39,219 nucleotides of DNA, from NCBI GenBank assembly GCA_039798685.1, contig JBDKFM010000002.1, positions 1-39,219 of the forward strand. Reading direction: 5' to 3'. The stretch is from Candidatus Parcubacteria bacterium (GTDB taxonomy: Bacteria > Patescibacteriota > Microgenomatia > Levybacterales > UBA12049). Below, piece after piece: positions 14 through 39,219 of the stretch. Position numbers and translations under genes: made by a program. The notes beneath the pieces were generated by a model, which worked only from the letters and a program-made list of their open reading frames with translations, was not told where the DNA came from and ran no database searches. Numbering within the stretch: the first letter of the stretch is position 1; the number at the start of each line of letters is the position of its first letter.

Positions 14-19
14 TATAAT
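14..19 (+). promoter_or_regulatory. -10 hexamer TATAAT, 5 nt upstream of the PBP start codon
   Basis: Read directly: cgTATAATgaggtATG. Any -35 region is lost at the window edge. GAGG is too close to the ATG to act as a normal SD. Confidence 0.4.
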
Positions 20-24
20 GAGGT

Positions 25-2235
25 ATGCACGAACTTCAGAGAGATATTGATGAGTTCCGCAAGCACCCGGAAAAGAGAGCATCAATTGCCAAATCAGTCA
101 TACGTGAACTTTGGTTGATCGGAAAAAAGCCGCTCTTTTACATATTTGTCAGTCTGATCGTTCTCCTCATCCTTACACCGGTTCTCACCTATCTCTACTT
201 TGTTCGTGACCTGGGGAGCAAAGAACGGATCACAAACCGCAATAACGGTGGCCTCGTGCTCCTAGACCGAAACGACAAACCATTTTTTACTTTTTATGAA
301 GCAAAAACCAAAAACGTGATTCCCCTCGAGAAGATCCCGAAGTTCACGCAGGAAGCAGTCATCGCAGTTGAAGACAAAGATTTCTACTCTCATGCCGGTA
401 TCTCTCCGACCAGTGTGATCAGAGCAGCACTCGCTGATATCCAGAACCGTGAAATCTCACAAGGAGGATCAACAATCACCCAGCAGCTCATCAAAAATGC
501 GTTACTTTCCCCCGAGCAGACATTTCTCAGGAAATATCAGGAAGCGATCCTTGCACTTGAAGTAGACAGACGGTATAGCAAAGACGACATTCTCGAAATG
601 TATCTCAACACTGTCTATTTTGGTGAGGGTGCATTTGGGATTCAAGACGCCGCTGAAGCATATTTCAGTAAGCCTGCCTCAGAACTCACACTCGCTGAGA
701 GCGCACTTCTTGCAGGTATTCTCCCTGCTCCCTCAGCCTACTCTCCACTCTCAGGAGATCGGGACAAGGCATTCTCGAGACAAAAAAAAGTACTGACGCA
801 GATGGCAGCACAGGGCTACATCACAAAAGAAGAAGCCACAGCAGCCGAAGAAGAAGAGATCATTTTTGATCCGAAAATCCGCGAGCTAAATGTTGAAGCA
901 CCGCATTTTGCACTCATGGTCAAAGACGAGCTGGCAAAAAAATATGGCGAACAGCAACTCGCGAGATCCGGTTATATTGTCAGAACGACACTTGATCTGA
1001 CAAACCAGGAGCATGCAGAAACAGTCGTAAAAAATCAGGTCGCACGACTACGTGGAAACAAAGCAACCAACGCCGCACTCGTCGCGATGAATCCAAAAAC
1101 AGGTGAAATCCTCAGTCTCGTTGGAAGCCATGACTGGTTTGATGAATCAAACGGAAAAATAAATATGGTTGTCAGAGCTCGCCAACCCGGATCATCCTTC
1201 AAACCGATTGTCTATGCTGATGCTCTCTCCCGCCGCCTCATCACCGCCGCTACAGAACTCGAAGACAAACCAATCACTTTCCCGGATGGCTACAAACCAA
1301 GAAACTATGACAACAAATTCAGAGACCATGTGCTGGTACGCTTCGCACTCGCCAACTCACTCAATATTCCGGCAGTCCATGTCATAGAAAAAGTAGGTGT
1401 CGCAAATACCGTCGCATTCGCCAGAAAACTCGGCATCACCTCCCTCACCTCGCCTGAAAGGTATGGCCTGTCACTCGTCCTCGGAGCAGCGGAAGTTCCT
1501 CTTCTCCAGATGACAGATGCCTATGCCGTCTTCGCAAATGGAGGGTATCTCGTCACTCCGACGACAATAATGGAGGTAAAAGATAAGAATAAAAAAACTA
1601 TTTTTACCAACGGACCAAAAAAAACATTCGTTCTTGATCAGGGTGTCGCATTTATTATCTCCTCCATTCTCTCAGACAATGAAATACGCAAAGAAACATT
1701 CGGCGGCGCACTGACCGTCTCACGTCCAGCAGCAGTAAAGACAGGAACGACTGAAAACTATCGCGATGCTCTCACGATTGGCTACACACCAAATCTCGTC
1801 GTTGGGGTCTGGGTCGGCAATAACGATAACACACCGATGGACACCGTCGCAGGGTCACTAGGAGCTGCTCCGATCTGGAGACAGGTAATGGAACAATTTT
1901 TCAAAACGCTCCCACGGGAAAATTTCACAAAACCATTCTCAATCATCGACCAGAATATCTGTAAAGAAAACGGTAAACGTGCTGAAGAGGCAACGACAAG
2001 TGCGTACACGGAATTTTTCCTGAGAGGAACTCTGCCCAAAGAACTCTGCACCAATGCACTCCCAACAGATACACCGACCCCGATTAAATCGGGGCCGACA
2101 AATGCACCTGATCCCACCGAACAGCCAACACAACAACCGACAATAAATCCGGCTGAGCAAAATGTACCAACACCAACTTTGACACAGGATAACGCAATTG
2201 AAGTCATAGGAGTCACAATAATCCCCGTGCCATAA
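25..2235 (+). CDS. Class A penicillin-binding protein (PBP1A-type bifunctional glycosyltransferase/transpeptidase)
   Basis: N-terminal TM helix. GT51 motifs EDKDFYSHAGIS, GGSTITQQL, RKYQEA. Transpeptidase motifs SSFK (SxxK), SLN (SxN), KTGTT (KTG). Pro/Thr-rich C-terminal tail. Confidence 0.93.
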   Translation: MHELQRDIDEFRKHPEKRASIAKSVIRELWLIGKKPLFYIFVSLIVLLILTPVLTYLYFVRDLGSKERITNRNNGGLVLLDRNDKPFFTFYEAKTKNVIPLEKIPKFTQEAVIAVEDKDFYSHAGISPTSVIRAALADIQNREISQGGSTITQQLIKNALLSPEQTFLRKYQEAILALEVDRRYSKDDILEMYLNTVYFGEGAFGIQDAAEAYFSKPASELTLAESALLAGILPAPSAYSPLSGDRDKAFSRQKKVLTQMAAQGYITKEEATAAEEEEIIFDPKIRELNVEAPHFALMVKDELAKKYGEQQLARSGYIVRTTLDLTNQEHAETVVKNQVARLRGNKATNAALVAMNPKTGEILSLVGSHDWFDESNGKINMVVRARQPGSSFKPIVYADALSRRLITAATELEDKPITFPDGYKPRNYDNKFRDHVLVRFALANSLNIPAVHVIEKVGVANTVAFARKLGITSLTSPERYGLSLVLGAAEVPLLQMTDAYAVFANGGYLVTPTTIMEVKDKNKKTIFTNGPKKTFVLDQGVAFIISSILSDNEIRKETFGGALTVSRPAAVKTGTTENYRDALTIGYTPNLVVGVWVGNNDNTPMDTVAGSLGAAPIWRQVMEQFFKTLPRENFTKPFSIIDQNICKENGKRAEEATTSAYTEFFLRGTLPKELCTNALPTDTPTPIKSGPTNAPDPTEQPTQQPTINPAEQNVPTPTLTQDNAIEVIGVTIIPVP

Positions 2236-2240
2236 ATGCA

Positions 2241-2654
2241 CTAAGGTTTCGGCGGAGAATTTTTTATTTTGTTAATCTGCCTGAGAGCGACAGGAGCAAA
2301 AGCAATCATCTCCTCAGGCAATAACGGCCTCGCCTGTTCTCCATCAAGAATTCCCGGACGAACTGACTGCATCACCGCATAAAGATCACCCTGCTCAGTG
2401 AGATACACAGATTCCCCGGGATTTACGCGACCTGGAATCCTTAACAACGGATGCTCTTCTCTTTCCAACTTATCACCTCTTTTTACCTCAACAGCAAGCA
2501 CCGGAACCTGATGAGGTTGGAGCTGACTCAACTGCTCCAAAAAAATCTCACGCGTTGACGTAAGAAATGCATCAACTGCATTTTCAAATCTATGCTGGGG
2601 ACTTGTTGTTTCAACAGAAGTTTCAGGTGGTAACAACTCGAGTTCGATCGCCAT
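2241..2654 (-). CDS. Hypothetical protein (137 aa)
   Basis: ORF fills the whole gap between the PBP gene and the DUF2207 gene. TATTAT lies 10 nt upstream of the ATG. No recognisable motif. Confidence 0.55.
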   Translation of the reverse strand: MAIELELLPPETSVETTSPQHRFENAVDAFLTSTREIFLEQLSQLQPHQVPVLAVEVKRGDKLEREEHPLLRIPGRVNPGESVYLTEQGDLYAVMQSVRPGILDGEQARPLLPEEMIAFAPVALRQINKIKNSPPKP

Positions 2655-2695: not shown

Positions 2696-4486
2696 TTACC
2701 AGCTTCCGCCACCACCTCCGCCAAACCCACCTCCTGAGGATCCTCCGCTGCTGGAAAAACCGCTGCTTTTCGGAGCGGATGCGATCGAACTTGAGACAGA
2801 TGTCGCAAATGAGTTCATGCTGGATTGAAATGACATGTAATTAAACGCATGCGCACCGTAATACCATCCGCTCCCCATCTGTTTCTCAGGCAGTCCAATA
2901 TCCTTCATTGCCTGTGCAAATTTTGCAGTCAGTCCAAACACAATCGCATACGGCAACACTTCATTAAACAGATTTTTCTTCTCAAAAAATTTCTGTCTGT
3001 GTGTTTCCGCAGTTGAGATAAAAAGTCGATACCCTCTGATGCGTCGATACATCTCCCTCCCCTTTGCCGTTCTCCGCGACATAAACGGTGTCAGTATCAG
3101 GAAAAATACTCCCAGAGCCACGACACTGATTGCAACACTGACGGGATATGGCGACTCCCCGTTCACGACGTAAGAGAAAAATACAAATCCCAAAATTAGA
3201 AGTACAATTCCCAAAACAAGGTAAATTCCCCGCACTGATTCAGGGTTTTTCGGAAACAACTTTTCGGAAACCACCCGCTCGTAGAGTGATTTTTTCACAT
3301 CGGCAAGATCTGTGTAAAATTTCTGCTTCAGTGATGAGACTTTGACTTCGTCCTTCCCGTCAAACAACCTCTCAAAAAGCATTTTTTCATATGGCACGAG
3401 TTCCTTCGTCTCTGTTTTTTTTCTCTTCAAGAGATAATCAGTACTCCCGAACATCCAAGATTTTTCAACTTCAGTGATGCTGAGATATCCTCTTCCTGCC
3501 AGATCAATGATTGTTGCGACGACATCAAGTGTATCAGCCCGTTCATCACTGAGCACTCCAATTTCAGCTGGACGCAGCTTTTCAGGAGGCGTATACTCCA
3601 CAACCACCGTTTCATGCTCTCCGACTCCACGTATCCGCTCATTGTCTGAACTCACAAAAAGCCCTTTCCCCATATATGTCATATCCCGCCCGTTTTTCAG
3701 CCAGATAACAAATGCGATTCCCACTGCTCCAAGTAACAGAACGCCCAGAAATAGTAACGATGCCGGCTCAATCATTTTCTCAAATAATGTCTTTGGCTTT
3801 TGCACGACAAGAAGTGGAATTACACCTTTTTCGTACCCTGTCACAAGCGTCAGCCCTTCATTTGGCTGAAGCGGACGACTTGCAGCATATGAGACAGACT
3901 GCGCACCCTCAGCTATCGTATAGGTACACGGATCTTTATATGTCGAGTATCCCTGAAAACAGGTCGCTTGAAGCACAGGAGCACTTTCGACTTTGACACC
4001 GGCTGACGCACGTTCTATCGGAACCCCCCATCCGTTACCGGTCACATTCCAGTAAAGCTCGTCATAACCGTCAAAACCTTGCAGTATCCCTTTTACAGAA
4101 TACGTCAGCACATACCTATGTGTTCCCGAGAGTGTCTTATCTGCATCTCCAATTCGTATGTTGATATTATTCTCATTTTTCGTTACGTTCGTGGTCGCAC
4201 TCAGTCCGTCCTGCATCACACTGTCTATATGCAATTCAGTGTAATAAGGCTTCCCGTCCCGGTCATATACGTAGGGTAAATCCCTATAAATTCCATGCTT
4301 CTGAAGTGTCCCGAAATCGACTTCAATCGTCTCTTGTATCTTCACATCTCCGGTTTTTTCAACAGCAATTTCTGAATGAAATGAATCAATTACCCACCCG
4401 GTCTCCTGGGCATAAACACGTGGGGCAATAAGCGATAAGCAATAAGCGAAAAGCAGAAATAAAAATATGCCCAGAACCCGCTTCAT
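2696..4486 (-). CDS. DUF2207-family membrane protein
   Basis: Signal/TM segment MKRVLGIFLFLLFAYCLSLIAP, extracytoplasmic N-domain and several central/C-terminal TM helices. The Gly-rich tail SSGGSSGGGFGGGGGGSW is typical of DUF2207. Confidence 0.8.
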   Translation of the reverse strand: MKRVLGIFLFLLFAYCLSLIAPRVYAQETGWVIDSFHSEIAVEKTGDVKIQETIEVDFGTLQKHGIYRDLPYVYDRDGKPYYTELHIDSVMQDGLSATTNVTKNENNINIRIGDADKTLSGTHRYVLTYSVKGILQGFDGYDELYWNVTGNGWGVPIERASAGVKVESAPVLQATCFQGYSTYKDPCTYTIAEGAQSVSYAASRPLQPNEGLTLVTGYEKGVIPLLVVQKPKTLFEKMIEPASLLFLGVLLLGAVGIAFVIWLKNGRDMTYMGKGLFVSSDNERIRGVGEHETVVVEYTPPEKLRPAEIGVLSDERADTLDVVATIIDLAGRGYLSITEVEKSWMFGSTDYLLKRKKTETKELVPYEKMLFERLFDGKDEVKVSSLKQKFYTDLADVKKSLYERVVSEKLFPKNPESVRGIYLVLGIVLLILGFVFFSYVVNGESPYPVSVAISVVALGVFFLILTPFMSRRTAKGREMYRRIRGYRLFISTAETHRQKFFEKKNLFNEVLPYAIVFGLTAKFAQAMKDIGLPEKQMGSGWYYGAHAFNYMSFQSSMNSFATSVSSSIASAPKSSGFSSSGGSSGGGFGGGGGGSW

Positions 4487-4492
4487 TTCTGC

Positions 4493-4501
4493 ATTGTAGC
4501 A
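4493..4501 (-). promoter_or_regulatory. Extended -10 promoter TGCTACAAT, 6 nt upstream of the DUF2207 ATG (leaderless arrangement)
   Basis: Minus strand reads gTGCTACAATgcagaaATG. Confidence 0.5.
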
Positions 4502-5278: not shown

Positions 5279-6367
5279 TTATTTCGGAAAAAGCTCTTCA
5301 TGTATGCCTTGAGCAGCTGCATCAGATGCTACCTGGGTATCAAAAATGTTGTGATCGGTAAAGAACGAGCGTTTCGGATCAGGATCATGAAGCAATGACT
5401 GAAATGAGGTGTACGTTTCAAGCGACTCCCATTTCACCTGAGATATTTGATCTTCAGTCGATCCCGTAAATTCAGACTCTAATCTTCGAACTTGAGCATA
5501 AGGCAACAGATTATGTGCGATGAAACTAGCATAAAAAGCGGCAAGTTCGTTCACTACAGACGGGAAATCAGTGAGTCCATCGACATGTTGCAGACCATGT
5601 TTCCTTTCATGCACTACGACCCCATATATCTCAAGCACCTGCGCGACACTCAGAGGAGCACTACTTCCGTCATCATCAACACCTATTCCGATCACGATAG
5701 ATTTTAAACCCGGATAAAATGCGCCACTCCCTATCCCATGCTGCCTTGTAAAAAAAATTGCATTCACATTTTGCTCCAACAATGGTCGTCCCGTTACATT
5801 CAGTAAATCGTGAATAGCATGAACTAAAGCTGTGTCCTCCTCACCATGTACATATGAGACTTCATCAATTCGTGTCACAGACGACTCTGCTGAGTACTCT
5901 CCGTCAGCATCGACACTGCCTCTGGGCACAAAAAGCACCCCTCCCACTCCGTCATGTATCGCAATTTCATCCTCGATCAACATCGGATGGCCTGAGATAT
6001 GCGCTTCTATCATCAAATTGAGTTCATTTCCTGCAATTACCGTTAAGAGATGTGATCTTCTTCTTTGGCTATTCCATACAGAGCGCTTCTTCGTTGATTC
6101 TTTGTCTGACGCCTTACTCACGCGGTAACGTACTTCCTGGGAGAGAGACTCAAGCGCTTCCGCTTCACGCGGTCGCACTCGATACATTGTCTCAAGTGCC
6201 CTATCCATAAACATCTCCGGACTGATTTGTGCCAACGGTGCATATGAGGTCATGACAGCACCACGTAGATCCTGACGGAGTTCCCGGATTGACCGTTGCC
6301 CGATACTCTCAATGGGTTCACCTTCCTGCGCATCAACTCTCGGAAAATATCCGTTTTCCTGCAACAT
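5279..6367 (-). CDS. Hypothetical protein with HExxH motif (putative gluzincin-like metallopeptidase)
   Basis: VVVHERKHGLQH contains HExxH, followed 17 residues later by NELAA (a possible third ligand Glu). The track start at 6376 is TTG. I prefer the ATG at 6367, which sits 8 nt downstream of TGCTACTAT. Confidence 0.6.
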   Translation of the reverse strand: MLQENGYFPRVDAQEGEPIESIGQRSIRELRQDLRGAVMTSYAPLAQISPEMFMDRALETMYRVRPREAEALESLSQEVRYRVSKASDKESTKKRSVWNSQRRRSHLLTVIAGNELNLMIEAHISGHPMLIEDEIAIHDGVGGVLFVPRGSVDADGEYSAESSVTRIDEVSYVHGEEDTALVHAIHDLLNVTGRPLLEQNVNAIFFTRQHGIGSGAFYPGLKSIVIGIGVDDDGSSAPLSVAQVLEIYGVVVHERKHGLQHVDGLTDFPSVVNELAAFYASFIAHNLLPYAQVRRLESEFTGSTEDQISQVKWESLETYTSFQSLLHDPDPKRSFFTDHNIFDTQVASDAAAQGIHEELFPK

Positions 6368-6375
6368 ACCGGACA

Positions 6376-6384
6376 ATAGTAGCA
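6376..6384 (-). promoter_or_regulatory. Extended -10 promoter TGCTACTAT, 8 nt upstream of the ATG at 6367
   Basis: Minus strand reads tcTGCTACTATtgtccggtATG. Confidence 0.45.
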
Positions 6385-6421
6385 GAAATGAAGCTATTTA
6401 TCAAACTATGGGTTGTATCGA

Positions 6422-6988
6422 TTACGTAGAAAGCTCTTCATCGTCATCTTCTTCTATACTCCCAAATGTCTCTTTATTCTCATCGACATGCGGCAAAAGT
6501 GTCTCAAGAATCCTCACATATCGCACAGGATTATGCACGGCATACAACTCAGCACACTCATTAAGACGCCAATCAAAAAGAGTCAATGTGCCGTAATTTA
6601 GCATCTTTCCAAGCACGCTCTGACTGATTCCGACCTGTTTGATATTTTGTATTCCGTGATGCTCGACTTTCTTAAAAAACACCCCCCTCTTATGCGCGAT
6701 TCCGTGAGGCGAAATTTCATAATACTCATTTACCCACTCCATAACGACATACACAGTCAACGCTGATTCGACGAGACTGAGAAGAATAAGTGACGAGAGA
6801 CCAAAAAGTGGATCATCAACAGGCAGCCACGCCTGAAGTCCTGTTGAGTAAAGTGAGTAGTATAAAATGATGAGCAGTACAGTCGTCAAGACATCAGCAA
6901 AAATAAGTTTCACAACCAAAAATGAGATACTCATCCTCACATTGACGTGATCAACTGCGATTTTTTTCGTTTTTTCGTTTGGCTGCAT
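6422..6988 (-). CDS. Membrane protein with bacterial PH domain (bPH_2 / YdbT-YdbS-like, DUF304)
   Basis: Two TM helices, then YYEISPHGIAHKRGVFFKKVEHHGIQNIKQVGISQSVLGKMLNYGTLTLFD, typical of membrane-flanked bPH domains. The track start at 7024 is TTG. The ATG at 6988 is preceded by TACCAT and a 7-nt spacer. Confidence 0.7.
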   Translation of the reverse strand: MQPNEKTKKIAVDHVNVRMSISFLVVKLIFADVLTTVLLIILYYSLYSTGLQAWLPVDDPLFGLSSLILLSLVESALTVYVVMEWVNEYYEISPHGIAHKRGVFFKKVEHHGIQNIKQVGISQSVLGKMLNYGTLTLFDWRLNECAELYAVHNPVRYVRILETLLPHVDENKETFGSIEEDDDEELST

Positions 6989-7053
6989 CCTCACTATGGT
7001 ATCGCTCCTCTTTGGGAAATACAAGCAGTGGTATCACTTCGCTATGGAGATGT

Positions 7054-7456: not shown

Positions 7457-7984
7457 TTACTGAACAATAAGCTTGCCGACCATTCCCATCTGGCGATGGT
7501 TGCCGACTGAGCAGTAGAATTCGTATGTTCCGGCTTTATCTGCAACAAATGTAATCGTATCGCTCTGTCCTGCTGAGAGCACTTTTGTCCGTGCTTCCTC
7601 GAACTCATCGACAACCCAATCGTGCATGCCTGTTTTATTATTGAGAGTGATCGTGACTTTATCACCTTTCTTCACTGTAATAGTCGTAGGATTGAACTTA
7701 AAGCTTGTTGATTCGATAGTAAACGATTTTTCAGTAGCAGACATCGCGGATTCACTTCCTGATGAGGGAGTTGTTTCCTCAGTGACCTCAACCATTGCGC
7801 CTTCAGGAGTCGGCGACACAACAGCCGTCTCTTCAGTCGTTGCTGGTACCGATGTTTTTGATTGATTCATAAAAAACACTGCACCGAGTATGCCAAGCAC
7901 AATCACGACAAATACGCCGATAAGAATCATGTTTTTGTTGCTTCCTGCTGGCTGTGGAGCTGATGAGGATGTATTCTCGTCCAT
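7457..7984 (-). CDS. Membrane-anchored cupredoxin (type 1 blue-copper, plastocyanin/azurin-like) protein
   Basis: N-terminal TM helix and a Thr/Ser/Glu-rich linker. Cupredoxin domain with candidate Cu ligands H (GMHDW), C (FYCS), H (GNH) and M (QMGM). Confidence 0.8.
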   Translation of the reverse strand: MDENTSSSAPQPAGSNKNMILIGVFVVIVLGILGAVFFMNQSKTSVPATTEETAVVSPTPEGAMVEVTEETTPSSGSESAMSATEKSFTIESTSFKFNPTTITVKKGDKVTITLNNKTGMHDWVVDEFEEARTKVLSAGQSDTITFVADKAGTYEFYCSVGNHRQMGMVGKLIVQ

Positions 7985-7993
7985 GAGATGTTT

Positions 7994-8206: not shown

Positions 8207-8222
8207 ATTCCAAGTATACAAC

Positions 8223-28790: not shown

Positions 28791-28867
28791 TAGCAAAAAT
28801 CATTAAGATAGCCTCAGGTTCAGACCTATAGTTGATATGTTTCATGAAAATAAATATAATAGTCACC

Positions 28868-30915: not shown

Positions 30916-30934
30916 ATTCCTCCATGAACAAATG

Positions 30935-30986: not shown

Positions 30987-31511
30987 TTATCCTGAAGCCC
31001 CGGGGAATTTTTCTGTCTTCTGCTGCGCCTGCTTCAGCGCGATATCATCATCCTGTTTTTTCTTCTGCTCTTCTTCTTGCAAATCCTGCATTTTTTCCTG
31101 TTCCTCAACCTTTTTCTCCTGCTCCTCTTCCTCCTCAGCAGGTTTTCGCTCTGTCAACGGAATATAATATTCCTCCTGATGCAACTTCTGACGAAGCGCC
31201 TCAAGCTTCACTGCTTCCTCTGGAGTTTTTCCGTCTTTTATCTGATCCTTCACAAACTGACTCGGTTCTTTCACGTCTCCTTCTGCTTGCTGTGGGGAAA
31301 GTCCATGTGCTTCGTTTGGATTTGAAGGCGCATAAAAAGAATTGACCACTTCCTCAGTCTGCTGATCAGCTTGCACTGCCCCCTGCTGTCCAGACGGCTG
31401 CGTATTCCCTACCTGTCCCGCAACTGCTTTGGCACTCGTTTTGACCTGCTGAGCAAATCCCTTTTCAAGATTCTCAAGTCCCTCATCAAATGCTTTTTTT
31501 ATATTTACCAT
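30987..31511 (-). CDS. Acidic low-complexity (Glu/Gln/Lys-rich) hypothetical protein
   Basis: 174-aa ORF starting 4 nt after the sufT-like stop. The C-terminal half is EEEEQEKKVEEQEKMQDLQEEEQKKKQDDD. Confidence 0.55.
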   Translation of the reverse strand: MVNIKKAFDEGLENLEKGFAQQVKTSAKAVAGQVGNTQPSGQQGAVQADQQTEEVVNSFYAPSNPNEAHGLSPQQAEGDVKEPSQFVKDQIKDGKTPEEAVKLEALRQKLHQEEYYIPLTERKPAEEEEEQEKKVEEQEKMQDLQEEEQKKKQDDDIALKQAQQKTEKFPGASG

Positions 31512-31515
31512 ATCT

Positions 31516-31824
31516 TTATCGTATAATACCCATCAACTCTTTTGCATCATCTGTCATGTTGTCTGGATTCCATGCCGGCTCCCATACGAGATTGATTCTC
31601 GCCTCCTTGACTCCTTCTATCTTTTTTACCGCTACCGGGATCCACTCTTCAAACACAAATGACAGCGGACATCCGGGAGTCGTGAGAGTCATGGTAACTT
31701 CTACTTCCCCCTTGTCCTGATCGATAGCAATATCATAAATAAGTCCGAGATCAACAATATTGACGTTGAGCTCAGGGTCCAGAACTGTCTTCAATTGCTC
31801 AGTGACCTGTTCCTTTGTGATCAT
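31516..31824 (-). CDS. sufT: Fe-S cluster assembly protein SufT-like (DUF59/MIP18 family)
   Basis: VTEQLKTVLDPELNVNIVDLGLIYDI...VTMTLTTPGCPL is the DUF59 signature. Start moved to the ATG at 31824, 8 nt after TGGTAGGAT. The alternative start is 31842. Confidence 0.85.
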   Translation of the reverse strand: MITKEQVTEQLKTVLDPELNVNIVDLGLIYDIAIDQDKGEVEVTMTLTTPGCPLSFVFEEWIPVAVKKIEGVKEARINLVWEPAWNPDNMTDDAKELMGIIR

Positions 31825-31832
31825 AGGATACA

Positions 31833-31841
31833 ATCCTACCA
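31833..31841 (-). promoter_or_regulatory. Extended -10 promoter TGGTAGGAT, 8 nt upstream of the ATG at 31824
   Basis: Minus strand reads aTGGTAGGATtgtatcctATG. Confidence 0.4.
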
Positions 31842-31857
31842 TATCCTCTGAGACTTC

Positions 31858-31866
31858 TGCTATAAT
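31858..31866 (+). promoter_or_regulatory. Extended -10 promoter TGCTATAAT, 8 nt upstream of the ATG at 31875 (leaderless arrangement)
   Basis: Read directly: tcTGCTATAATcccaagctATG. Nearly identical to the element at 16258-16273. Confidence 0.55.
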
Positions 31867-31874
31867 CCCAAGCT

Positions 31875-32750
31875 ATGGGACCAAGATCAGAACGAATACT
31901 TGCGCTAGAAGCCCCCGGATATCCGGTAAAACCGATGCAAGAATCAATTGCTCCTGCAGATATCCTTCGACGAAGAGCGCAGCTTCCCCACGAAAAACAA
32001 CAACTCGATCAAATCCAAGATGCATTGATCGATACAACCGGCAGGGTGCTTCAGGATGAACTAGTCCAACAATTTGGATTTGATAGAATGCGCTGGCAGC
32101 TTCTCGTGCAACACAATGCACTGAGCGCCTTCTATCTGGGTAGTACTACTGAAACTGGGAAAAACATCAGCCTCGATGAAGCAGAAGGTGTTGTGGAAAT
32201 CCGAACAAGTGTCTGGGGAAATTATGGAGAAAACGGTCGAGCGACAACAAGTCCCGAAGTCAGGATCGGCGGTGTCGCTGAAGATTCTTCAGGACAAAAC
32301 AGAGCAATAGGACTACTTTATCAAGAAGGAAAACTTTCCGGAATCGGCATCTCCTTCTCAGATACAGAAATTCTTCCCCCAAATCAGTTTCCATATGATG
32401 ACGATCTTCGCTGGGAATACGAAAGATTTACTCATGCTATGCCAAGCAATATAGGAGATATGACTTTTTCACATGAAACACCTGGACACATCACTGCTGA
32501 GATGAAACGCAAGACAAGCGACCATAATCGATTACTGGATATCGGAACGAATCCTCAAGATCGTACACCCGTTTTATTTCATCTTTACCCAAATCATGGA
32601 TTGTGGATCAATACAGGCTTAGAATATAAATGGATAGAGTTCGATGCAACCAAAAGAACGAGCAGAGGAAATGCTATTTTTAAAGAAACACATCCTTTTC
32701 CAGAGATCTCTCGATGGAGTATTAGTATACCTCGAGCACTTGAAAAATAA
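31875..32750 (+). CDS. Hypothetical protein (291 aa)
   Basis: ORF directly behind the extended -10 element. No recognisable motif. Confidence 0.6.
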   Translation: MGPRSERILALEAPGYPVKPMQESIAPADILRRRAQLPHEKQQLDQIQDALIDTTGRVLQDELVQQFGFDRMRWQLLVQHNALSAFYLGSTTETGKNISLDEAEGVVEIRTSVWGNYGENGRATTSPEVRIGGVAEDSSGQNRAIGLLYQEGKLSGIGISFSDTEILPPNQFPYDDDLRWEYERFTHAMPSNIGDMTFSHETPGHITAEMKRKTSDHNRLLDIGTNPQDRTPVLFHLYPNHGLWINTGLEYKWIEFDATKRTSRGNAIFKETHPFPEISRWSISIPRALEK

Positions 32751-32760: not shown

Positions 32761-33174
32761 TTACTTCCGCTTTTTGTGGAGTGATTTTTTTGCTTTCGAT
32801 TTTGCAACTATCGTACTTTCGACGACATCCTCAACAGTACTCCAGAAATCTTCGTTATTTTCATCCGCCAAAAGTCGCTCAACAATCCTCTTATAGCCTT
32901 TTCCGGCATAGCGAAGCTGCATACTTACAGACGCAATCGTCGTCGGAGTAACACGAAGCGTCTTCCCTATCATCGGATACGTATATTCTTTCTCAAGCAT
33001 CAGAGCAATCGCGAGGCGTTTGGCGAGCATCATCTTCTCAATCGGAGACAGTAAATCACTGAGAAACGCATCCAACTCATTCTTATCCTTCATCGTCAGA
33101 ATTGTTGATGAAAAAAGCGCAAACATTTGCTCTTCGAGGTCTCGTCGTACCGGTAGTTTTGATAATTGTGACAT
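32761..33174 (-). CDS. TrpR-like / YerC-YecD family DNA-binding protein
   Basis: LSPIEKMMLAKRLAIALMLEKEYTYPMIGKTLRVTPTTIASVS matches the helix-turn-helix core of the Trp-repressor-like YerC/YecD family. Confidence 0.6.
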   Translation of the reverse strand: MSQLSKLPVRRDLEEQMFALFSSTILTMKDKNELDAFLSDLLSPIEKMMLAKRLAIALMLEKEYTYPMIGKTLRVTPTTIASVSMQLRYAGKGYKRIVERLLADENNEDFWSTVEDVVESTIVAKSKAKKSLHKKRK

Positions 33175-33192
33175 TTTAAAATTTGGCTTTTT

Positions 33193-33221
33193 ATAATATA
33201 TATCACCGAACAGATTGTCAA
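33193..33221 (-). promoter_or_regulatory. Sigma-70-type promoter TTGACA-17-TATTAT, 18 nt upstream of the ATG at 33174
   Basis: Minus strand reads ccTTGACAatctgttcggtgatataTATTATaaaaagccaaattttaaaATG. Confidence 0.55.
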
Positions 33222-33284
33222 GGAAGTGTTTTTTGCAAAATAAGACTTTTACACGGTACTCACTGTTTCATGTAAAATAAAATA

Positions 33285-34046
33285 GTGCACATAAAGTTTC
33301 TTCAACTCAATATCTACATGGGAAAATGTATGGAGACGCTCCTTACCTATCTTAAAGAGGAGCAGTTCGATATCCTCAGTTTCCAGGAGGTGTCAGGTGG
33401 CGAAATAAGTTTTGACAAGAGCAATACATTTCAAAAGATCATTGATCTCGGGTATGACGGAGAGATCAGCGTGACATGGAGATATAAAGACAAACCCCAC
33501 TCCTTTTTCGGCTCATCAGTATTTTTCAAACCGGCATTCACACTCCTCAATAAAAAGGAAATCTGGCTCAAAGACTATATGGAGATTGAGACGCTTGAAG
33601 GTTTTAAATCAGAAGAATTCCCAAAATCCGCACTCAGCGTCACACTTGAAAATGAAGGCAAAAAGTTTGAAATTATCAGCACACATCTCGCCTGGTCACC
33701 AAGAGCCACCGACACTCCTGAAAAACTACGACAGGCAGAAATATTCCGTACATATATGACAGAGAGACATCTCCCATTTATCCTTTCGGGTGATTTCAAT
33801 GTCACCCCGGACACAAAAGTCTCATCGATGTTTGACCACTTCGGCCGCAATCTGACAAAAGAACACAACCTTAAAAATACCTTAAATCTCAGGGTGCACA
33901 GACACAAAGAGGAATTGCTCAGAGAAGGAGGTGTCGCAGTTGATTATATTTATGTGAGTCCTACTATTTCGGTCACAAAATTCTCTCCAGTAGACTCAGT
34001 AGATCTCTCTGACCACCTCGGACTCCTGCTTGAGTGTGAAATTTAG
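33285..34046 (+). CDS. Endonuclease/exonuclease/phosphatase (EEP) family protein
   Basis: FLQLNIYMG...FDILSFQEV (N/E motif), ISTHL, SGDFNVTPD, SDHLGL (catalytic His). GTG start preceded by TAAAAT (33273-33278) and a 6-nt spacer. The first in-frame ATG is at 33318. Confidence 0.8.
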   Translation: MHIKFLQLNIYMGKCMETLLTYLKEEQFDILSFQEVSGGEISFDKSNTFQKIIDLGYDGEISVTWRYKDKPHSFFGSSVFFKPAFTLLNKKEIWLKDYMEIETLEGFKSEEFPKSALSVTLENEGKKFEIISTHLAWSPRATDTPEKLRQAEIFRTYMTERHLPFILSGDFNVTPDTKVSSMFDHFGRNLTKEHNLKNTLNLRVHRHKEELLREGGVAVDYIYVSPTISVTKFSPVDSVDLSDHLGLLLECEI

Positions 34047-35494
34047 AGAGAATGCGTCTTTCCATTTTGAAACAGTGCCGAATCTCTAAAGATCCGGTGA
34101 TTTTTTACTTCATCAGGCGTTGAGACGCTCTCGCACAATCCGTGTAAGAATTTCTCATCACTGATAATGCCGCTCTCTGCTCTCCCAGTTTCTCTGGTCA
34201 CAACGGAATACAAATCAAGCGCTCTATTCAGTATACGAATATGATCATTTCTTCTGATTCTCGTCTCATCTGTACCGAGAGAATATGCAATTTTTTGCTG
34301 ATAGATAAAATCCCTAAGGATCATGTTCATATCACTCTTGCTCCCTCTTCTTTTCAGAAGTTCAAAAACTGCATTCCTCAGTGTTGCGTCCTCAGTAAAC
34401 GTCTTATCGACGATTACCTCCCCTATCGTGCTTCGTATATGCGGATGCATCTTTGAATAACTATCTGGGGCTTTGGCGTCAGCCTCATCTTTCAAAAGAG
34501 AAAAAAGAAGAAGTTTGGCATCTACCGAAGCACTCTCATGTTCATAGAACAGACCAAACTCATGCCACAGTGATTTTGCATCAGAGTATGCAAATGCTTT
34601 TAGGATTTGAAGCCGTATCTTCTGTACTTCATCCCGAAGTGCTTCTGATGGACGTCCGCCGATACGCATCTGCTCTTGTGCCTGTGTAAAGTAATTTCGG
34701 TAGACAGTGAGAAGATGTTCCTGTGCCGGCTTATTTGACGACTCCCCCTCATAACCCTCTGCTGCATCCCGCAGCGGATCAATATATACTCTTCGGACAC
34801 GATTGATGAGTCCTTGATTACCACTTCCCCTCATTGAAGCATCAAGCACGGGCTCCATGTGTACCAGAAACGCCGCATGCCCATAAGCACTTTGTGAATG
34901 GAGCACGAGCTCTGCCATTCGCGGATTTCTTTCAAAATGCTCAAGAAAAAATTCAATGATTGCTGGATATTCCTCTAATGCAAGCGCCGTTGTCCCGTCT
35001 CTTTTTCCAATCATTTGCTCAAGACGCATGAGTGCAACTGATGCTCCTGCCTGATCCTGTGTAATCTCAACCTTTTGCGCAAGACGTGAAAAAGCCCGAA
35101 ATGACTCAGGATGCGCCTCAAAAACATTTACGCTACCTTGTACTATCGTTTTCAACGTCTCCCGATCCATCTCAATTGCGTGCTGCGCAACACGAGGTAT
35201 GTATGAGGCTGCGATAAGACGCCCGAAAAATCCGCCTGGATTTTCTCCCTCATCACCAGTCGGCATTGTATGATCCGTAAAAGTCCAGCGCGATTGTGGC
35301 ATACCGCTCCCGGTCGGTGAAGTATTTTCCATACGGAGGTCTGCGATCCCGCTTTTTGATAAAGCTGAGGCTGTTTCCTGAAGGAGCATAAAATCCACAA
35401 CAGGCATGGTACTACGCTCAAATTGTATTTGTGCGAAACCGTCTGGAGAAGTCTTAAACTCAATATGATTACCATTTCGAGGCCGTTCACTCAT
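34043..35494 (-). CDS. Hypothetical protein (483 aa)
   Basis: Long ORF with an extended -10 element 6 nt upstream. Its stop interlocks with the EEP gene stop (TTAG at 34043-34046). No recognisable motif. Confidence 0.65.
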   Translation of the reverse strand: MSERPRNGNHIEFKTSPDGFAQIQFERSTMPVVDFMLLQETASALSKSGIADLRMENTSPTGSGMPQSRWTFTDHTMPTGDEGENPGGFFGRLIAASYIPRVAQHAIEMDRETLKTIVQGSVNVFEAHPESFRAFSRLAQKVEITQDQAGASVALMRLEQMIGKRDGTTALALEEYPAIIEFFLEHFERNPRMAELVLHSQSAYGHAAFLVHMEPVLDASMRGSGNQGLINRVRRVYIDPLRDAAEGYEGESSNKPAQEHLLTVYRNYFTQAQEQMRIGGRPSEALRDEVQKIRLQILKAFAYSDAKSLWHEFGLFYEHESASVDAKLLLFSLLKDEADAKAPDSYSKMHPHIRSTIGEVIVDKTFTEDATLRNAVFELLKRRGSKSDMNMILRDFIYQQKIAYSLGTDETRIRRNDHIRILNRALDLYSVVTRETGRAESGIISDEKFLHGLCESVSTPDEVKNHRIFRDSALFQNGKTHSL

Positions 35495-35500
35495 GAAGGA

Positions 35501-35509
35501 ATTGTAGCA
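35501..35509 (-). promoter_or_regulatory. Extended -10 promoter TGCTACAAT, 6 nt upstream of the ATG at 35494 (leaderless arrangement)
   Basis: Minus strand reads attTGCTACAATtccttcATG. The same 9-mer precedes the DUF2207 gene. Confidence 0.55.
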
Positions 35510-35617
35510 AATTTGAGGGTAATTTACAATACTCTAGGCTTATTATAGCCTCACTTTCCTCTCTTCTACGATACCCGAATCCAGACTGAGTAAATCTTGA
35601 TTCTCTGCCATTTTGAA

Positions 35618-35626
35618 TGTCATACT
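35618..35626 (+). promoter_or_regulatory. Extended -10-like element TGTCATACT, 6 nt upstream of an in-frame GTG at 35633
   Basis: Read directly: aaTGTCATACTgcatatGTG. Confidence 0.35.
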
Positions 35627-35632
35627 GCATAT

Positions 35633-36142
35633 GTGGAAAGAATTGGTCTCGTACTAACTATCGCCGTTATCCTCATCTTCACACGACATTTTCTACGTCG
35701 ATCAATGATACTCGCATGGATTGTAGGCATTCTTCTTCTTGTCTCACTTGTCTACACCACCTTTCAGGGAGCAGGTGTGTTATCCAAAAATCCCATTTTT
35801 ATTTTCTATGGATTACTCACAACTGTCGTAGTAAATGCGTTTGGAATTTTGCTTTTACTCGCTGATACCAAGAACAAATTATCCTCTATTGTAAAAGACT
35901 CACCCCTTTCAAATCACCTTGTGAGAGGTGCAGCACTCTGCGCTCTCCTTCTTTTACAAACCCACCTGTATGCGTTTTTACTCTACAAATTTAGTAGTTC
36001 GCATCCCGGGAAGGGAGATTTAGTGATGCCCCTTCTCCTCTCATTTATTAGTGGGGTCATACTCATTCATTTCTATAGAGATTTTCGGATAGCTCGGAAT
36101 CAGGAAGTAAATATTCCTCAGGGAGACAAAATAGCAACCTAA
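35633..36142 (+). CDS. Hypothetical integral membrane protein (5-6 TM helices)
   Basis: Hydrophobic throughout. The track start at 35597 is TTG. The GTG at 35633 fits the local promoter-to-start geometry, but the start remains uncertain. Confidence 0.55.
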   Translation: MERIGLVLTIAVILIFTRHFLRRSMILAWIVGILLLVSLVYTTFQGAGVLSKNPIFIFYGLLTTVVVNAFGILLLLADTKNKLSSIVKDSPLSNHLVRGAALCALLLLQTHLYAFLLYKFSSSHPGKGDLVMPLLLSFISGVILIHFYRDFRIARNQEVNIPQGDKIAT

Positions 36143-36747
36143 TATTCACTTCTGCCGTCCATTGCGCGCTCGAGGGTTGTGGGGTCGGCATATTCCAAAT
36201 CTGCACCAACAGGAAGTCCTCTTCCAATCCTTGTAATTCTCACATCACTATTCGCACTCCGCAGTTGCTTACTGATATACATCGCAGTCGCTTCCCCCTC
36301 CATCGTCGGATTTGTTGCGAGGATGAATTCTTTTATAATATCGTTTCCACTTTTTGCACGCTGCAACAGCTGATTCACATAGATCTCATCTGGACCAATA
36401 TTATTTAAAGGATCAATCTTGCCATGAAGTACATGATAAATCCCTTTATATTTCCCATTTTTCTCAAGCGCGAGGACATCGAGAGGCTGTTCAACAACAC
36501 ACACCACCGAATGATCACGCAGCGCATCTGCACAAATACTACATGGATCTATTTCATCAACGTTATAACACGTCTTACAAAGTATCGTATTAGTTTTGAG
36601 ATTCTTCACTGCTTCTGCAAATCGATCAAGCTCATGCTGCGGTACATGCAAAAGATAAAACGTCAACCTCTGTGCGCTTTTCGGACCAATGCCGGGAAGA
36701 CGCTCAAATGACTCAATAAGTGACTGAATTGTTGCGGGGATTTTCAT
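36139..36747 (-). CDS. recR: Recombination protein RecR
   Basis: ERLPGIGPKSAQRLTFYLL (HhH), Cys4 finger CKTCYNVDEIDPCSIC, Toprim VVCVVEQPLDVLALE. Confidence 0.93.
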   Translation of the reverse strand: MKIPATIQSLIESFERLPGIGPKSAQRLTFYLLHVPQHELDRFAEAVKNLKTNTILCKTCYNVDEIDPCSICADALRDHSVVCVVEQPLDVLALEKNGKYKGIYHVLHGKIDPLNNIGPDEIYVNQLLQRAKSGNDIIKEFILATNPTMEGEATAMYISKQLRSANSDVRITRIGRGLPVGADLEYADPTTLERAMDGRSEY

Positions 36748-36759
36748 GATAGATACAGC

Positions 36760-36768
36760 ACTATAGCA
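36760..36768 (-). promoter_or_regulatory. Extended -10 promoter TGCTATAGT, 12 nt upstream of the recR ATG
   Basis: Minus strand reads gtTGCTATAGTgctgtatctatcATG. Confidence 0.45.
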
Positions 36769-36795
36769 ACTTCGCTACCCAACGGTCAATTGGCT

Positions 36796-37695
36796 TTAGG
36801 ACTGAAGCACACTGACGACTTCCGAGGCAACGGAAAGTGTCGTTAATTTCGAAAATTGTTTTTCCTCAGGTACCTCAATTGTGTCAGTGACGAAAACATG
36901 TGAGGCCGGTGAATCCTGCAATAATTTCGCTGCATCTTCTGAAAACACCGCATGCGTCGCAAAGATAGCAACGTCCTCTGCTCCTCCCTCGATAAGAATA
37001 CGTGCAGCCTGCACGATTGTTTTACCACTCGAGATCATATCATCAACAATCAGACAGCGTTTCTTTATCTTCCCGTGCACACCTGACGCATCGATACTCC
37101 CCGTCGTGAGATCCCGGTTTTTCTCAACCGATGTCGTCTCCATACCCCCAAGCATCTCAGATAGCTGCGAAAGCCTCCTGAGACCTCCCATGTCTGGGGA
37201 AACGAGTACTGTTTCATTATCAATCCAACCGTTTTTCTTTATTTCTGCGGCAAAAAGCGGCAGTGCGGAAAGATGCGTCACGGGAAGTGTAAAAAGCTCA
37301 GGAGTTTTGATTGAGTGAAAATCAAACCCGATGACTCGTGTCGCACCGTTTACCTCAATCGCATTGATCATCACCTCAAGCGACCTGGCCTCACCTGTCC
37401 TAAATACATGATCCTGTCGGGAGTAGCCGATATAAGGGATCACTGCAGTGACGGATTTCGCACCGTTTCTGGTAGCACCGTCAAGAAGAAGAAATAATTC
37501 TATATAGTGTTGATCAGTCGGCATACCAGTCGACTGGACAATCACCACATCCTGATCGACAATATCGTCTCTTAGCTGGATACGCTGCTCACCGTCAGGA
37601 AAAACGTGGTGTTCAACCTCAGAAAGCCTGATACCTAATCCCTCTGCAACCGCACTCCCCAACTGCCTCCCTGCAGAGCCTGCAAAAATCTTCAT
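36796..37695 (-). CDS. prs: Ribose-phosphate pyrophosphokinase
   Basis: MKIFAGS..., GYSRQDH, LVSPDMGG, IVDDMISSGKT. Start set to the ATG at 37695, 6 nt after TGTTACAAT. The track start is 37716. Confidence 0.92.
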   Translation of the reverse strand: MKIFAGSAGRQLGSAVAEGLGIRLSEVEHHVFPDGEQRIQLRDDIVDQDVVIVQSTGMPTDQHYIELFLLLDGATRNGAKSVTAVIPYIGYSRQDHVFRTGEARSLEVMINAIEVNGATRVIGFDFHSIKTPELFTLPVTHLSALPLFAAEIKKNGWIDNETVLVSPDMGGLRRLSQLSEMLGGMETTSVEKNRDLTTGSIDASGVHGKIKKRCLIVDDMISSGKTIVQAARILIEGGAEDVAIFATHAVFSEDAAKLLQDSPASHVFVTDTIEVPEEKQFSKLTTLSVASEVVSVLQS

Positions 37696-37701
37696 AGAAA
37701 T

Positions 37702-37710
37702 ATTGTAACA
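37702..37710 (-). promoter_or_regulatory. Extended -10 promoter TGTTACAAT, 6 nt upstream of the prs ATG (leaderless arrangement)
   Basis: Minus strand reads ggaTGTTACAATatttctATG. Confidence 0.55.
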
Positions 37711-37796
37711 TCCCAAAGAGAATGCTCATAGAGAAAAATGTCTGTCATCGAGAAAAAACTTTGGATCACTTCGTTCAATCGAAATGACGTTTCGTA

Positions 37797-37805
37797 TGGT
37801 ACAGT
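37797..37805 (+). promoter_or_regulatory. Extended -10 promoter TGGTACAGT, 6 nt upstream of the GTG at 37812
   Basis: Read directly: gtaTGGTACAGTaaaaagGTG. Confidence 0.45.
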
Positions 37806-37811
37806 AAAAAG

Positions 37812-39219
37812 GTGAAAAAAATCGCATATATCCTCCTCCCCTTTCTCTACCTATTCCTTCTCCTTTTCCAAATCGATCAGTCGATGCTCGAAGATCTGGG
37901 ACGTCATCTCAAGATGGGTGAAGTAATCCTGCAGTGCCTCTGTGTTCCTCAGACAAATCTTTTTTCATATACTCATCCGGATTTCCCCGTCGTCAATCAT
38001 GAGTGGCTGACGCAAGTTATTCTCTTTTTCTTTTACAAACACTTCGGACTCACAAGTCTGCTTTTCGTAAAAATAGCAGTAATCATGCTCTCTTTTGCAA
38101 TCGTCTATTATCTGGCAAAGAAAAAGAGCTCATGGTACTGGCTCACACTAATCTCCTTCGTCTGTATCATTATTTTTTCCTCGCGCTTCAGAGTACGACC
38201 TGAGATGTTCAGTTATCTTTTCCTCGCGCTCTTCCTTCTGATTCTCTCGTACTACCAAAGAGCAAAACGTCTACTCCTTCTCCTCCCGCTTCTGATGACG
38301 CTATGGGTAAATATGCACATTTACTTTATCCTCGGGTTCATGCTCTATGGCAGCTTTCTGTTGCAGGAATTTCTTGTCACAAAAAAACCACCCACTTTTC
38401 TTCTCATCATTGGTGGATTGTTATTCGTAGCAACGCTATTAAATCCTGAATTTGTCGATGGTGCGCTGCTACCGTTCACATTTTCTGCCAACTATGGTTT
38501 GTCAGTACAGGAAAACATGAGCGTCTTTGAGTTTGGGAAATATGCCCCGTCATTTATTTACACCCTCACGCTCCAAGTAATGACGTTTGAGATAGTTGTC
38601 GGCATCTTTCTTCTTACAGCTCCACTACTCTTCAAAAAAACAGCAGTTGCCAACATAACAAACGGACTGTTCTCAGCGCTTCTTGGATTACGATTTGTCC
38701 GGAGCATCAGCATCTTTGGACTCTTAGGACTTGAGCCACTTTCTGAAAAAATGACACTCATAGAAAAAAACCTGCGACATACTGCAGGACACCACATGCT
38801 CAATACGGTAAAAACACTACTTTTACTCAGTGTTCTTTTCGTCACATATCTGTATGCAGACGGATTGCATAAAAATAAAGTCCTTCAGTTTGGATTTCAA
38901 CCCTATGCAGAAGACGCGACAAATTTTATCAACAACAATCAAGTACAGGGACCGATTTTTAATAACTACCAGATCGGAAATTACCTGATTTATGGACTCT
39001 ATCCTCGCGAAAAAATCTTTATTGATGCCAGACCGGAGATGTATCCAAAAGAATTTCTCAGTGAGTACGAGAGAATGCTCGTTGATCAGGATTTTTTCGA
39101 TACTCAGGTACATAAATACGGAATCAATCTCATCGTATTTGGCGTACAGATGGAAGACCCGGAAACTATCAGACCGTTTCTCCTGAGGCAAATTGAGAGC
39201 AAGAAGTGGATTCCGATCT
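37812..39219 (+). CDS. Polytopic membrane protein, 3'-truncated by the window end (GT-C-like, tentative)
   Basis: Not in the supplied ORF track. I translated this frame by hand and found no stop from 37812 to 39219 (469 codons): VKKIAYILLPFLYLFLLLFQIDQSMLEDLGRHLKMGEVIL...NHEWLTQVILFFFYKHFG...FNNYQIGNYLIYGLYPREKIFIDARPEMYP... It has at least 9 hydrophobic helices and an acidic first-loop motif (MLEDLG). An alternative start is the ATG at 37884. Confidence 0.7.
   Translation, partial: MKKIAYILLPFLYLFLLLFQIDQSMLEDLGRHLKMGEVILQCLCVPQTNLFSYTHPDFPVVNHEWLTQVILFFFYKHFGLTSLLFVKIAVIMLSFAIVYYLAKKKSSWYWLTLISFVCIIIFSSRFRVRPEMFSYLFLALFLLILSYYQRAKRLLLLLPLLMTLWVNMHIYFILGFMLYGSFLLQEFLVTKKPPTFLLIIGGLLFVATLLNPEFVDGALLPFTFSANYGLSVQENMSVFEFGKYAPSFIYTLTLQVMTFEIVVGIFLLTAPLLFKKTAVANITNGLFSALLGLRFVRSISIFGLLGLEPLSEKMTLIEKNLRHTAGHHMLNTVKTLLLLSVLFVTYLYADGLHKNKVLQFGFQPYAEDATNFINNNQVQGPIFNNYQIGNYLIYGLYPREKIFIDARPEMYPKEFLSEYERMLVDQDFFDTQVHKYGINLIVFGVQMEDPETIRPFLLRQIESKKWIPI

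Follow-up and report, generated by a model that had tools for sequence, protein, structure and literature searches.

In the stretch of DNA presented above (hereafter the window, that is, the whole 39,219 bp analysed, with ~44% GC and ~46 closely packed genes), most transcription units appear to be headed by sigma-70-type promoters lying near enough to their start codons for the resulting mRNAs to have virtually no leader. That a −10 or extended −10 element sits 5–9 nt from most unit starts was the core claim of an earlier note on this DNA, and it is supported by shuffled controls, companion elements, genomic context, orthologues and a lineage-wide peak. Since the −10 element lies ~7 bp upstream of the transcription start site (TSS) across 49 bacteria (PMC12641261), and leaderless 'group C' genomes are marked by a Pribnow box 6–8 nt from the start codon (PMC6028130), we put at about 0.8 the probability that ~24 of the ~35 units in the window have leaderless starts of this type, TSS and translation mode being deduced from promoter geometry.

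In the mechanism that we propose, these are ordinary housekeeping promoters of the sigma-70 type, consisting either of a −35 element (TTGnnn), 17 nt and TAnnnT, or of an extended −10 (TGnTAnnnT) without a −35, and their hexamer ends 6 nt (range 5–9) before the start codon at ~24 of ~35 units. RNA polymerase, starting ~7 nt past the hexamer, would place the 5′ end of the transcript on the first base (A or G) of the start codon, or 1–3 nt ahead of that; where the spacer measures 6 nt, the seventh position falls on this very base. An mRNA of this kind would have hardly any leader and no Shine-Dalgarno (SD) site. A ribosome carrying initiator tRNA would then bind the 5′-terminal AUG/GUG directly, as for the leaderless mRNAs of mycobacteria and Deinococcus. 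Since many genes in same-strand gaps of 25–60 nt have a promoter of their own, expression would be largely gene-by-gene, while a minority of genes (HMG-CoA reductase, HMGR; thiY behind its riboswitch; the gene starting at 30915; an ABC permease) would retain SD-led initiation and the tightly packed internal genes of operons mostly have neither signal.

The arrangement had been read directly at 21 starts, and all 21 combinations of element, spacer and start codon are in place letter for letter, coordinate and strand included. Two of these call for qualification. The element before 35633 stands as written, but its hexamer is CATACT, so it is not a TANNNT, and the string before 8206 (−) is indeed there but opens just a 45-codon open reading frame (ORF), not the cupredoxin gene, whose start is 7984. 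Spacers measure 6 nt in 12 of the 21, 8 nt in four, 7 nt in three, and 5 and 9 nt in one each. The list was incomplete, as 16234 (−), 31511 (−) and 7984 (−) have the same architecture, and with curated starts 24 of 46 genes therefore have a −10 at a spacer of 5–9. Seven others have a −10 at a spacer of 10–19 and no SD, four are SD-led (HMGR, thiY, 30915 and the permease at 23501) and 11 are internal genes with neither signal. The 'nine further units with 9–19 nt leaders' of the earlier note do not hold as worded, the figure being the distance from −10 to ATG, which implies leaders of only ~3–13 nt.

How much of this could arise by chance was assessed with gene calls based on simple ORF rules, the same for the controls. 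When starts are chosen blind to promoters (the first in-frame ATG of each of 44 ORFs) and compared with 1000 dinucleotide shuffles of the upstream regions, TANNNT at a spacer of 5–9 precedes 19 genes as against 7.0±2.4 in shuffles (maximum 16), and a stricter hexamer (TANNAT or TATANT) precedes 17 as against 2.8±1.6 (maximum 8). Free choice among all ATG/GTG candidates, granted to the shuffles likewise, gives 26 as against 11.6±2.7 (maximum 20). None of the observed counts was reached in any of the 1000 shuffles, the motif precedes just 4.7% of internal ATGs, and spacer lengths cluster sharply at 6 (nine genes, with ~1–2 for every other spacer). The spacing distribution thus does not match that of shuffled upstream regions, the outcome by which the earlier note proposed to refute itself. 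An artefact made of chance TAnnnT in AT-rich upstream DNA and of freedom in choosing starts can point to the ~7 of 44 genes expected by chance and to the ~9 starts re-assigned in the earlier note, yet the counts above contradict it, as do a gene-call-free peak and a conservation across orthologues (below) that are both independent of start choice. Nine window starts differ from the longest ORF, six of which are confirmed by orthologues. We consider the artefact explanation extremely improbable.

Promoters, ribosome sites or read-through

The source of the window, judged by cysteinyl-tRNA synthetase (CysRS) matches and synteny, is a Patescibacteria (candidate phyla radiation, CPR) bacterium that belongs to the Microgenomates and is close to Levybacteria. 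The encoded CysRS shares 78% identity with that of one metagenome-assembled genome (MAG), L001, 74% with that of a Levyibacteriota MAG, L002, and 60–64% with those of several other Levyibacteriota MAGs, many more Levybacteria/Microgenomates MAGs being among the best matches, and more than 10 neighbouring genes are syntenic with L001 and L002. The lineage-wide statements below draw on 21-kb loci surrounding a single gene (72 related Patescibacteria loci in all, of which 23 are closest, with eight Chloroflexota loci as control), while the organism itself is represented by 39 kb.

Each sequence-level test that could be applied favours sigma-70 promoters. When 180 upstream regions with TANNNT at 5–9 (from the window and the 23 closest loci) are aligned on the hexamer, a −35 emerges unselected at −23 to −21, that is, at 17-nt spacing (T 70%, T 55%, G 47%), together with an extended −10 (T 56% and G 42% at −3/−2). 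Among the 21 sites of the earlier note, TTG occurs at 16–18 nt in 8 of 20, compared with 6.7% for all TANNNT in the window (P=4e-5), and the TGn extension in 11 of 21, compared with a background of 7.3% (P=1e-7). TTG and TGn are largely complementary, which is classical for the −35 and the extended −10 of sigma-70 promoters. A generic sigma-70 consensus scan gave no more matches in the window than in shuffles (32 vs 35.1; 35 vs 34.5), being too permissive, although its top-scoring matches coincide with the proposed sites.

Genomic context is equally telling. TANNNT at 5–9 precedes 49% of divergent genes and 60% of genes behind same-strand gaps of 25–59 nt, but only 17%, which is background, of those behind gaps of <25 nt (unit heads vs gaps <25 nt, P ~1e-7 to 1e-8). 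A motif found at unit heads and falling to background at internal genes argues for a promoter, since a motif that binds ribosomes should be found before internal genes as well. This bears on the possibility that TAnnnT/TATAAT acts in the mRNA, as a non-SD ribosome-binding site or AU-rich enhancer similar to that of the Bacteroidetes ('group B'). The motif is AT-rich and sits where a ribosome-binding site would, and SD usage in the lineage is very low, all of which would fit. Such a signal would have no need of a −35 TTG at exactly 17 nt or of a TGn extension, neither of which was selected for, nor would the best full sigma-70 matches be expected to fall on it, and group B motifs precede all genes (PMC6028130). 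We regard this alternative as very improbable, and it was rejected, as was the artefact.

Orthologues tell the same story, for they hold the distance from −10 to start while the sequence of the spacer drifts. For the ECF sigma gene, TATAAT lies 6 nt before ATG in 10 of 11 orthologues and 8 nt in the remaining one, with differing spacer sequences; TANNNT is found at 5–9 in 15 of 18 PrsA orthologues and in 41 of 78 CysRS orthologues. The pattern can also be seen without gene calls, by counting, per offset, each TGNTANNNT behind which an ATG begins an ORF of >=100 aa. In the 23 closest loci, offset 6 has 33 matches compared with ~3.6 per other offset (Poisson P ~6e-21), and a similar peak is seen in the 49 further Patescibacteria loci. 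The height of the peak is 4.6x in Microgenomates-labelled loci, 2x in Parcubacteria-type loci and 0.7x in Chloroflexota, there being no offset-6 peak in the eight Chloroflexota loci. Companion elements, context, orthologues and the gene-call-free test, as four independent lines, identify the elements, as far as sequence goes, as sigma-70-type promoters and not ribosome sites.

Several points nevertheless weigh against leaderless starts at ~24 units. About three of the 21 could be chance, given the shuffle expectation of ~7 of 44 for TANNNT, the weak cases being 25, 6988 and 8206. Spacers of 8–9 (7 of 24 units) allow a start 1–3 nt upstream, that is, a very short leader. Searches of RNA runs with the window sequence and one Rifle Levybacteria locus gave only metatranscriptomes of the same study, with zero shared words, and of their contigs nothing aligned to the window and only one spurious 33-nt piece to the locus L039. 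Finally, intrinsic terminators are not above shuffles in the window (22 vs 16.5±4.1; 22 vs 15.0±4.1), lying mostly inside genes and almost never between them, and read-through transcripts probably cover the leaderless-type genes as well, so that leaderless transcripts may account for only part of their protein.

This last point feeds the most serious competitor, in which the promoters are real but protein is made mainly from read-through mRNA, or from transcripts starting slightly upstream, by SD-independent internal initiation (through an unstructured stretch rich in A and U, a U(−1)AUG context or 70S re-initiation). Consistent with it, terminators above chance are lacking and short spacers have none; internal operon genes with neither SD nor −10 must already be translated independently of SD; U is found at −1 in 51–67% of genes in all contexts; and the longer spacers leave room for leaders of 1–3 nt. 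It offers no reason, though, why spacer 6 should prevail, the length at which a canonical +7 start falls exactly on the A of ATG, and the conservation of the spacing across orthologues also speaks against it. Moreover, the lack of a TTG peak and near-lack of a GTG peak after the −10 fit the restriction on 5′-terminal codons (PMC4633059). We give it a minor but real chance, and favour leaderless initiation at these units.

The start codon itself deserves comment. The 24 leaderless-type units start with 21 ATG and three GTG, and in the closest loci offset 6 after the −10 holds 33 ATG and 2 GTG, with no TTG or GTG peak. The three GTG starts are supported by orthologous sequences. GTG 33285 is the sole canonical start upstream of the EEP domain, and the position is ATG in orthologues (TAAGAT-6-ATG in L001 and L002; TAATAT-6-ATG in L081); orthologues of 35633 in L081 (67% identical) and L082 (88%) keep TTGATT..TGTCATACT-6 with ATG as codon; and the 37812 orthologue in L001 (69% identical) has TGCTACAGT-6-GTG, a GTG too. 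The earlier note's view that leaderless GTG starts are unusual is correct for E. coli, and they are rare in this lineage, but it is not valid in general, for in mycobacteria a 5′-terminal ATG or GTG, though not TTG or CTG, is necessary and sufficient (PMC4633059).

Leaderless-type starts along the window

The window encodes PBP1A, UppS, a thiY-type ABC system behind a TPP riboswitch, an ECF sigma factor, CysRS, RecR and PrsA, along with a mevalonate-pathway cluster (HMGR, HMGS, thiolase, DUF35, GHMP kinases and MVD). About two-thirds of its genes are on the minus strand, and all 2-kb bins of the whole window have a negative GC skew (−0.05 to −0.22); one published Microgenomates genome reportedly has an unusual strand composition disparity. 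The DNA runs that contain the contig sequence are freshwater and wastewater metagenomes, and freshwater samples have it at ~12x.

At the left end, PBP1A, a class A penicillin-binding protein (14..27, +), has TATAAT-5-ATG, a weak case because the spacer is only 5 and the window edge hides any −35. The gene for a DUF2207 membrane protein (4484..4501, −; TGCTACAAT-6-ATG) has its own promoter in a 55-nt same-strand gap, and a hypothetical protein starting at 6367 (6365..6404, −) has TTGATA-17-TGCTACTAT-8-ATG. The bPH_2 protein (6986..7001, −; TACCAT-7-ATG) is again weak, for its hexamer is poor and there is another possible start, the GTG at 6994, downstream of AGAGGAG. Cupredoxin, missing from the earlier list, is near-leaderless (7982..8023, −; TTGACA-18-TATAGT-9-ATG, for a leader of 0–3 nt), and the glyoxalase/VOC protein that follows starts at ATG 7449 (−; MARVVHFEIH...), 7 nt past the cupredoxin stop, the longest-ORF GTG at 7665 being wrong. 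The 45-codon ORF at 8206, a putative gene (8204..8218, −; TATACT-6-ATG), spans 8068-8206 (−), directly behind its TATACT-6, and is hydrophobic (MKNENIAAIILVILVLCISLYML...). No homologue of it was present in the loci compared; small membrane proteins made from leaderless mRNAs are common in mycobacteria, and this may be another.

Further along, the NUDIX gene (12560..12580, −; TGCTAAAAT-9-ATG) has its promoter in a 28-nt same-strand gap. A divergent pair then shares a 39-nt spacer (16232..16276, both strands), with TATAAT-8-ATG(16234) on the minus strand for a GHMP/mevalonate kinase and TGCTATAAT-7-ATG(16274) on the plus strand, the −35 of each gene lying inside the other. L001 keeps this pair as TATAAT-6-ATG and TGGTATAAT-7-ATG, 37 nt apart. 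Hypothetical proteins account for the next three, namely TGTTACGAT-6-ATG with TTGATT at 17 nt (17281..17298, −), TATAAT-8-ATG in a 45-nt same-strand gap (18073..18089, −) and TTGCAA-17-TATAAT-6-ATG (22686..22723, −).

The ECF sigma factor (25439..25453, +; TATAAT-6-ATG) has a promoter that is itself sigma-70-like, not ECF-like. Nine orthologues (L005, L008, L009, L011, L012, L014, L017, L021 and L023) share a block, TTTTTTGCTAAATCATTCG, that spans the −35 region (TTGCTA-17-TATAAT) and is not in the window's own ECF promoter (25400-25450). Because its conservation exceeds what a −35 needs, this block may be a regulator binding site, a putative assignment from sequence conservation. On the same strand, a hypothetical protein has TTGTCT-17-TATACT-6-ATG (26712..26749, +). 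CysRS (28773..28790, −; TGGTACAAT-6-ATG) is divergent from a hypothetical gene starting at 28868 (28832..28870, +; TTGATA-17-TATAAT-7-ATG), 92 nt apart.

The promoter of the hypothetical gene at 31511, also absent from the earlier list, overlaps the stop codon with which the gene before it ends (31509..31523, −; TACGAT-6-ATG), and its orthologues in L001 and L002 have a −10 likewise at 6. A second divergent pair has a 50-nt spacer (31822..31877, both strands), with TGGTAGGAT-8-ATG(31824) on the minus strand for an FeS-assembly protein, whose L001 orthologue has TATACT-8, and TGCTATAAT-8-ATG(31875) on the plus strand. The EEP-family nuclease/phosphatase (33273..33287, +) has TAAAAT-6-GTG. The right end holds a hypothetical protein (35492..35529, −; TTGTAA-17-TGCTACAAT-6-ATG), a membrane protein (35596..35635, +; TTGATT-18-TGTCATACT-6-GTG), the ribose-phosphate pyrophosphokinase PrsA (37693..37710, −; TGTTACAAT-6-ATG) and a last hypothetical protein (37797..37814, +; TGGTACAGT-6-GTG).

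Shine-Dalgarno-led genes and genes with neither signal

The scarcity of SD sites that had been claimed for this DNA is clear. With an SD core defined as GGAG, GAGG or AGGA at −17 to −5, and with the Chloroflexota control loci processed identically, a core precedes 10% of window genes and 12–13% of genes in related Patescibacteria loci, as opposed to 52% in Chloroflexota (P ~7e-19). Core counts were used since an SD offset test including GTG/TTG starts is dominated by codon periodicity. No window gene, and <=1% of those in related loci, combines an SD core with a −10 at 5–9. Tightly coupled genes have an SD core in 22% of cases as against 57% in the control.

SD pairing is all the same not lost in the lineage, judging from the sequence: related loci have a small SD peak at spacers 7–9, a TPP riboswitch carries GAGAGG, and the window has four good SDs. 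Three of these, in HMGR, thiY and the gene at 30915, had been named before and are indeed present. HMGR (21908..21927, −) has AGGAGAGG-9-ATG. The gene at 30915 (30913..30963, −) is leadered and SD-dependent by its layout, with TTGACT-17-TATACT-19-ATG and GGAGG 3 nt before ATG. The fourth is an internal gene, the ABC permease (23499..23515, −), where GGAAGGAGAG-acgc precedes ATG(23501), probably the true start rather than GTG 23645, which gives the longest ORF. As for thiY, which encodes an NMT1-type binding protein, it lies behind a thiamin pyrophosphate (TPP) riboswitch (25279..25388, −; 58.8 bits), and so has a long leader and SD-type control. The 3′ part of the aptamer encloses GAGAGG and the AUG at 25294, which makes 25294, not 25330, the true thiY start; the gene is probably controlled by occlusion of SD and AUG within the riboswitch.

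Other units have ordinary promoters with short leaders. An unnamed one has TTGACA-17-TATAAT-14-ATG (10709..10754, +; ~7-nt leader, no SD), a TrpR-like protein TTGACA-17-TATTAT-18-ATG (33172..33221, −; ~11-nt leader, no SD) and RecR TTGACC-18-(TGC)TATAGT-12-ATG (36745..36789, −).

What genes with neither signal might use instead is suggested by the base before the start codon. In Patescibacteria loci, T occupies −1 in 51–67% of genes whatever their context, tightly coupled internal ones included, compared with 23–30% before internal Met codons of the same loci and 17–40% at Chloroflexota gene starts; the window alone has ~45%. An extended codon–anticodon context, U−1:A37, may on this evidence compensate for weak SD use. 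Loss of the anti-SD has been reported for a Parcubacteria subgroup (detection rate 48%) and not for Microgenomates (PMC9297842); there are no rRNA genes in the window or in the 80 loci compared with it.

A side observation concerns the mevalonate cluster (13101-21910, −), a complete route in a CPR/Microgenomates contig comprising HMGR, an archaeal-style trio (HMG-CoA synthase, thiolase and a DUF35 OB-fold protein), two GHMP kinases and diphosphomevalonate decarboxylase (MVD), adjoined by UppS and the NUDIX gene, a possible IDI. Its synteny is kept in L001, L003, L007, L011 and L014. A near-palindromic motif, (C)AATTTGAAATT / ATTTCAAAT, is repeated (−) in four spacers of this isoprenoid cluster (11949-12037, 14082-14176, 18424-18497 and 20723-20758), which together hold 11 of the 13 whole-window matches to TTTGAAAT. 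The genes downstream of these spacers have neither SD nor −10 at 5–9. Orthologous spacers in L001, L003 and L014 contain other short AT-rich repeats (TTTGAGATTTGA, TTCGAATTT, AAATCTTAAATCTT), and RNA folding of the window repeats reveals no convincing structure (z +0.4 to −2.3). The repeat might serve as an operator, as a site of processing or in SD-independent translation.

Significance and relation to known systems

On a more far-reaching reading, Microgenomates and, more weakly, other CPR bacteria might have made leaderless expression their default (one gene, one promoter, one 5′-AUG mRNA, in spacers of 25–60 nt) and largely abandoned SD even internally, relying instead on U(−1)AUG and AT-rich spacers. 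We advance this tentatively, with more doubt than conviction. If true, it would tie the reduced CPR ribosome, with its short bS1 and missing bL9/uL30 (PMC9297842), to a way of initiating translation that typical bacteria do not share and that may be ancestral. No description of leaderless gene starts in CPR, Patescibacteria, Saccharibacteria, Microgenomates or Parcubacteria was found in the literature searched, which does not cover everything, and pipelines built on GeneMarkS-2 may already have assigned such genomes to a class with no remark on it. This would be the known group C architecture in a lineage for which we found no description.

There would be several implications. They are that (i) gene callers trained on SD sites will misplace starts in these genomes, (ii) translation initiation in CPR bacteria, for which the searched literature offered no description, would gain a concrete and testable property of unusually small ribosomes, namely a leaderless-dominated, SD-poor regime, (iii) compact TGnTAnnnT-N6-ATG cassettes could serve as a practical guide for expression constructs in the few cultivable CPR bacteria and (iv) a deep-branching, low-GC lineage joins Actinobacteria and Deinococcus in the evolution of initiation.

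Among known systems, the individual leaderless mRNAs known from E. coli and its phages, such as lambda cI from PRM and Tn1721 tetR, start on the A of AUG and are initiated in an AUG-dependent manner at the 5′ end. They are rare there and weakly translated (~10% of leadered mRNAs; PMC4633059), whereas this arrangement would be the default here. The resemblance to group B (Bacteroidetes/FCB) lies in very low SD usage and AT-rich DNA upstream of starts (PMC6028130), but the group B motif lies in the mRNA before all genes, while the present one is confined to unit heads and accompanied by −35/TGn. Archaeal group D (Haloferax, Sulfolobus) likewise has mostly leaderless units and low SD use (PMC6028130), but with a TATA box at ~−26, in contrast to the bacterial −10 at 6–8 nt with a −35 TTG or TGn seen here.

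The closest parallel is group C (Mycobacterium, Streptomyces and Corynebacterium; Deinococcus-Thermus), where a Pribnow box lies 6–8 nt before first genes, without an SD there (PMC6028130, PMC4633059), where the start is ATG, occasionally GTG and never TTG, and where a large share of units is affected, all as in the window. The lineage differs, however (Patescibacteria/Microgenomates, with ~44% GC and a genome that is reduced), extended −10 elements (TGn) are very frequent and GTG is rare, promoters are placed gene by gene in minimal spacers, and ~2/3 of window units would be leaderless as compared with the 25–50% predicted for group C genomes (PMC6028130). A further difference may concern internal genes, which are described as using SD-type ribosome-binding sites in group C, whereas here 22% of tightly coupled genes have an SD core (57% in the control), next to the four SD-led window genes and the small SD peak of the relatives.

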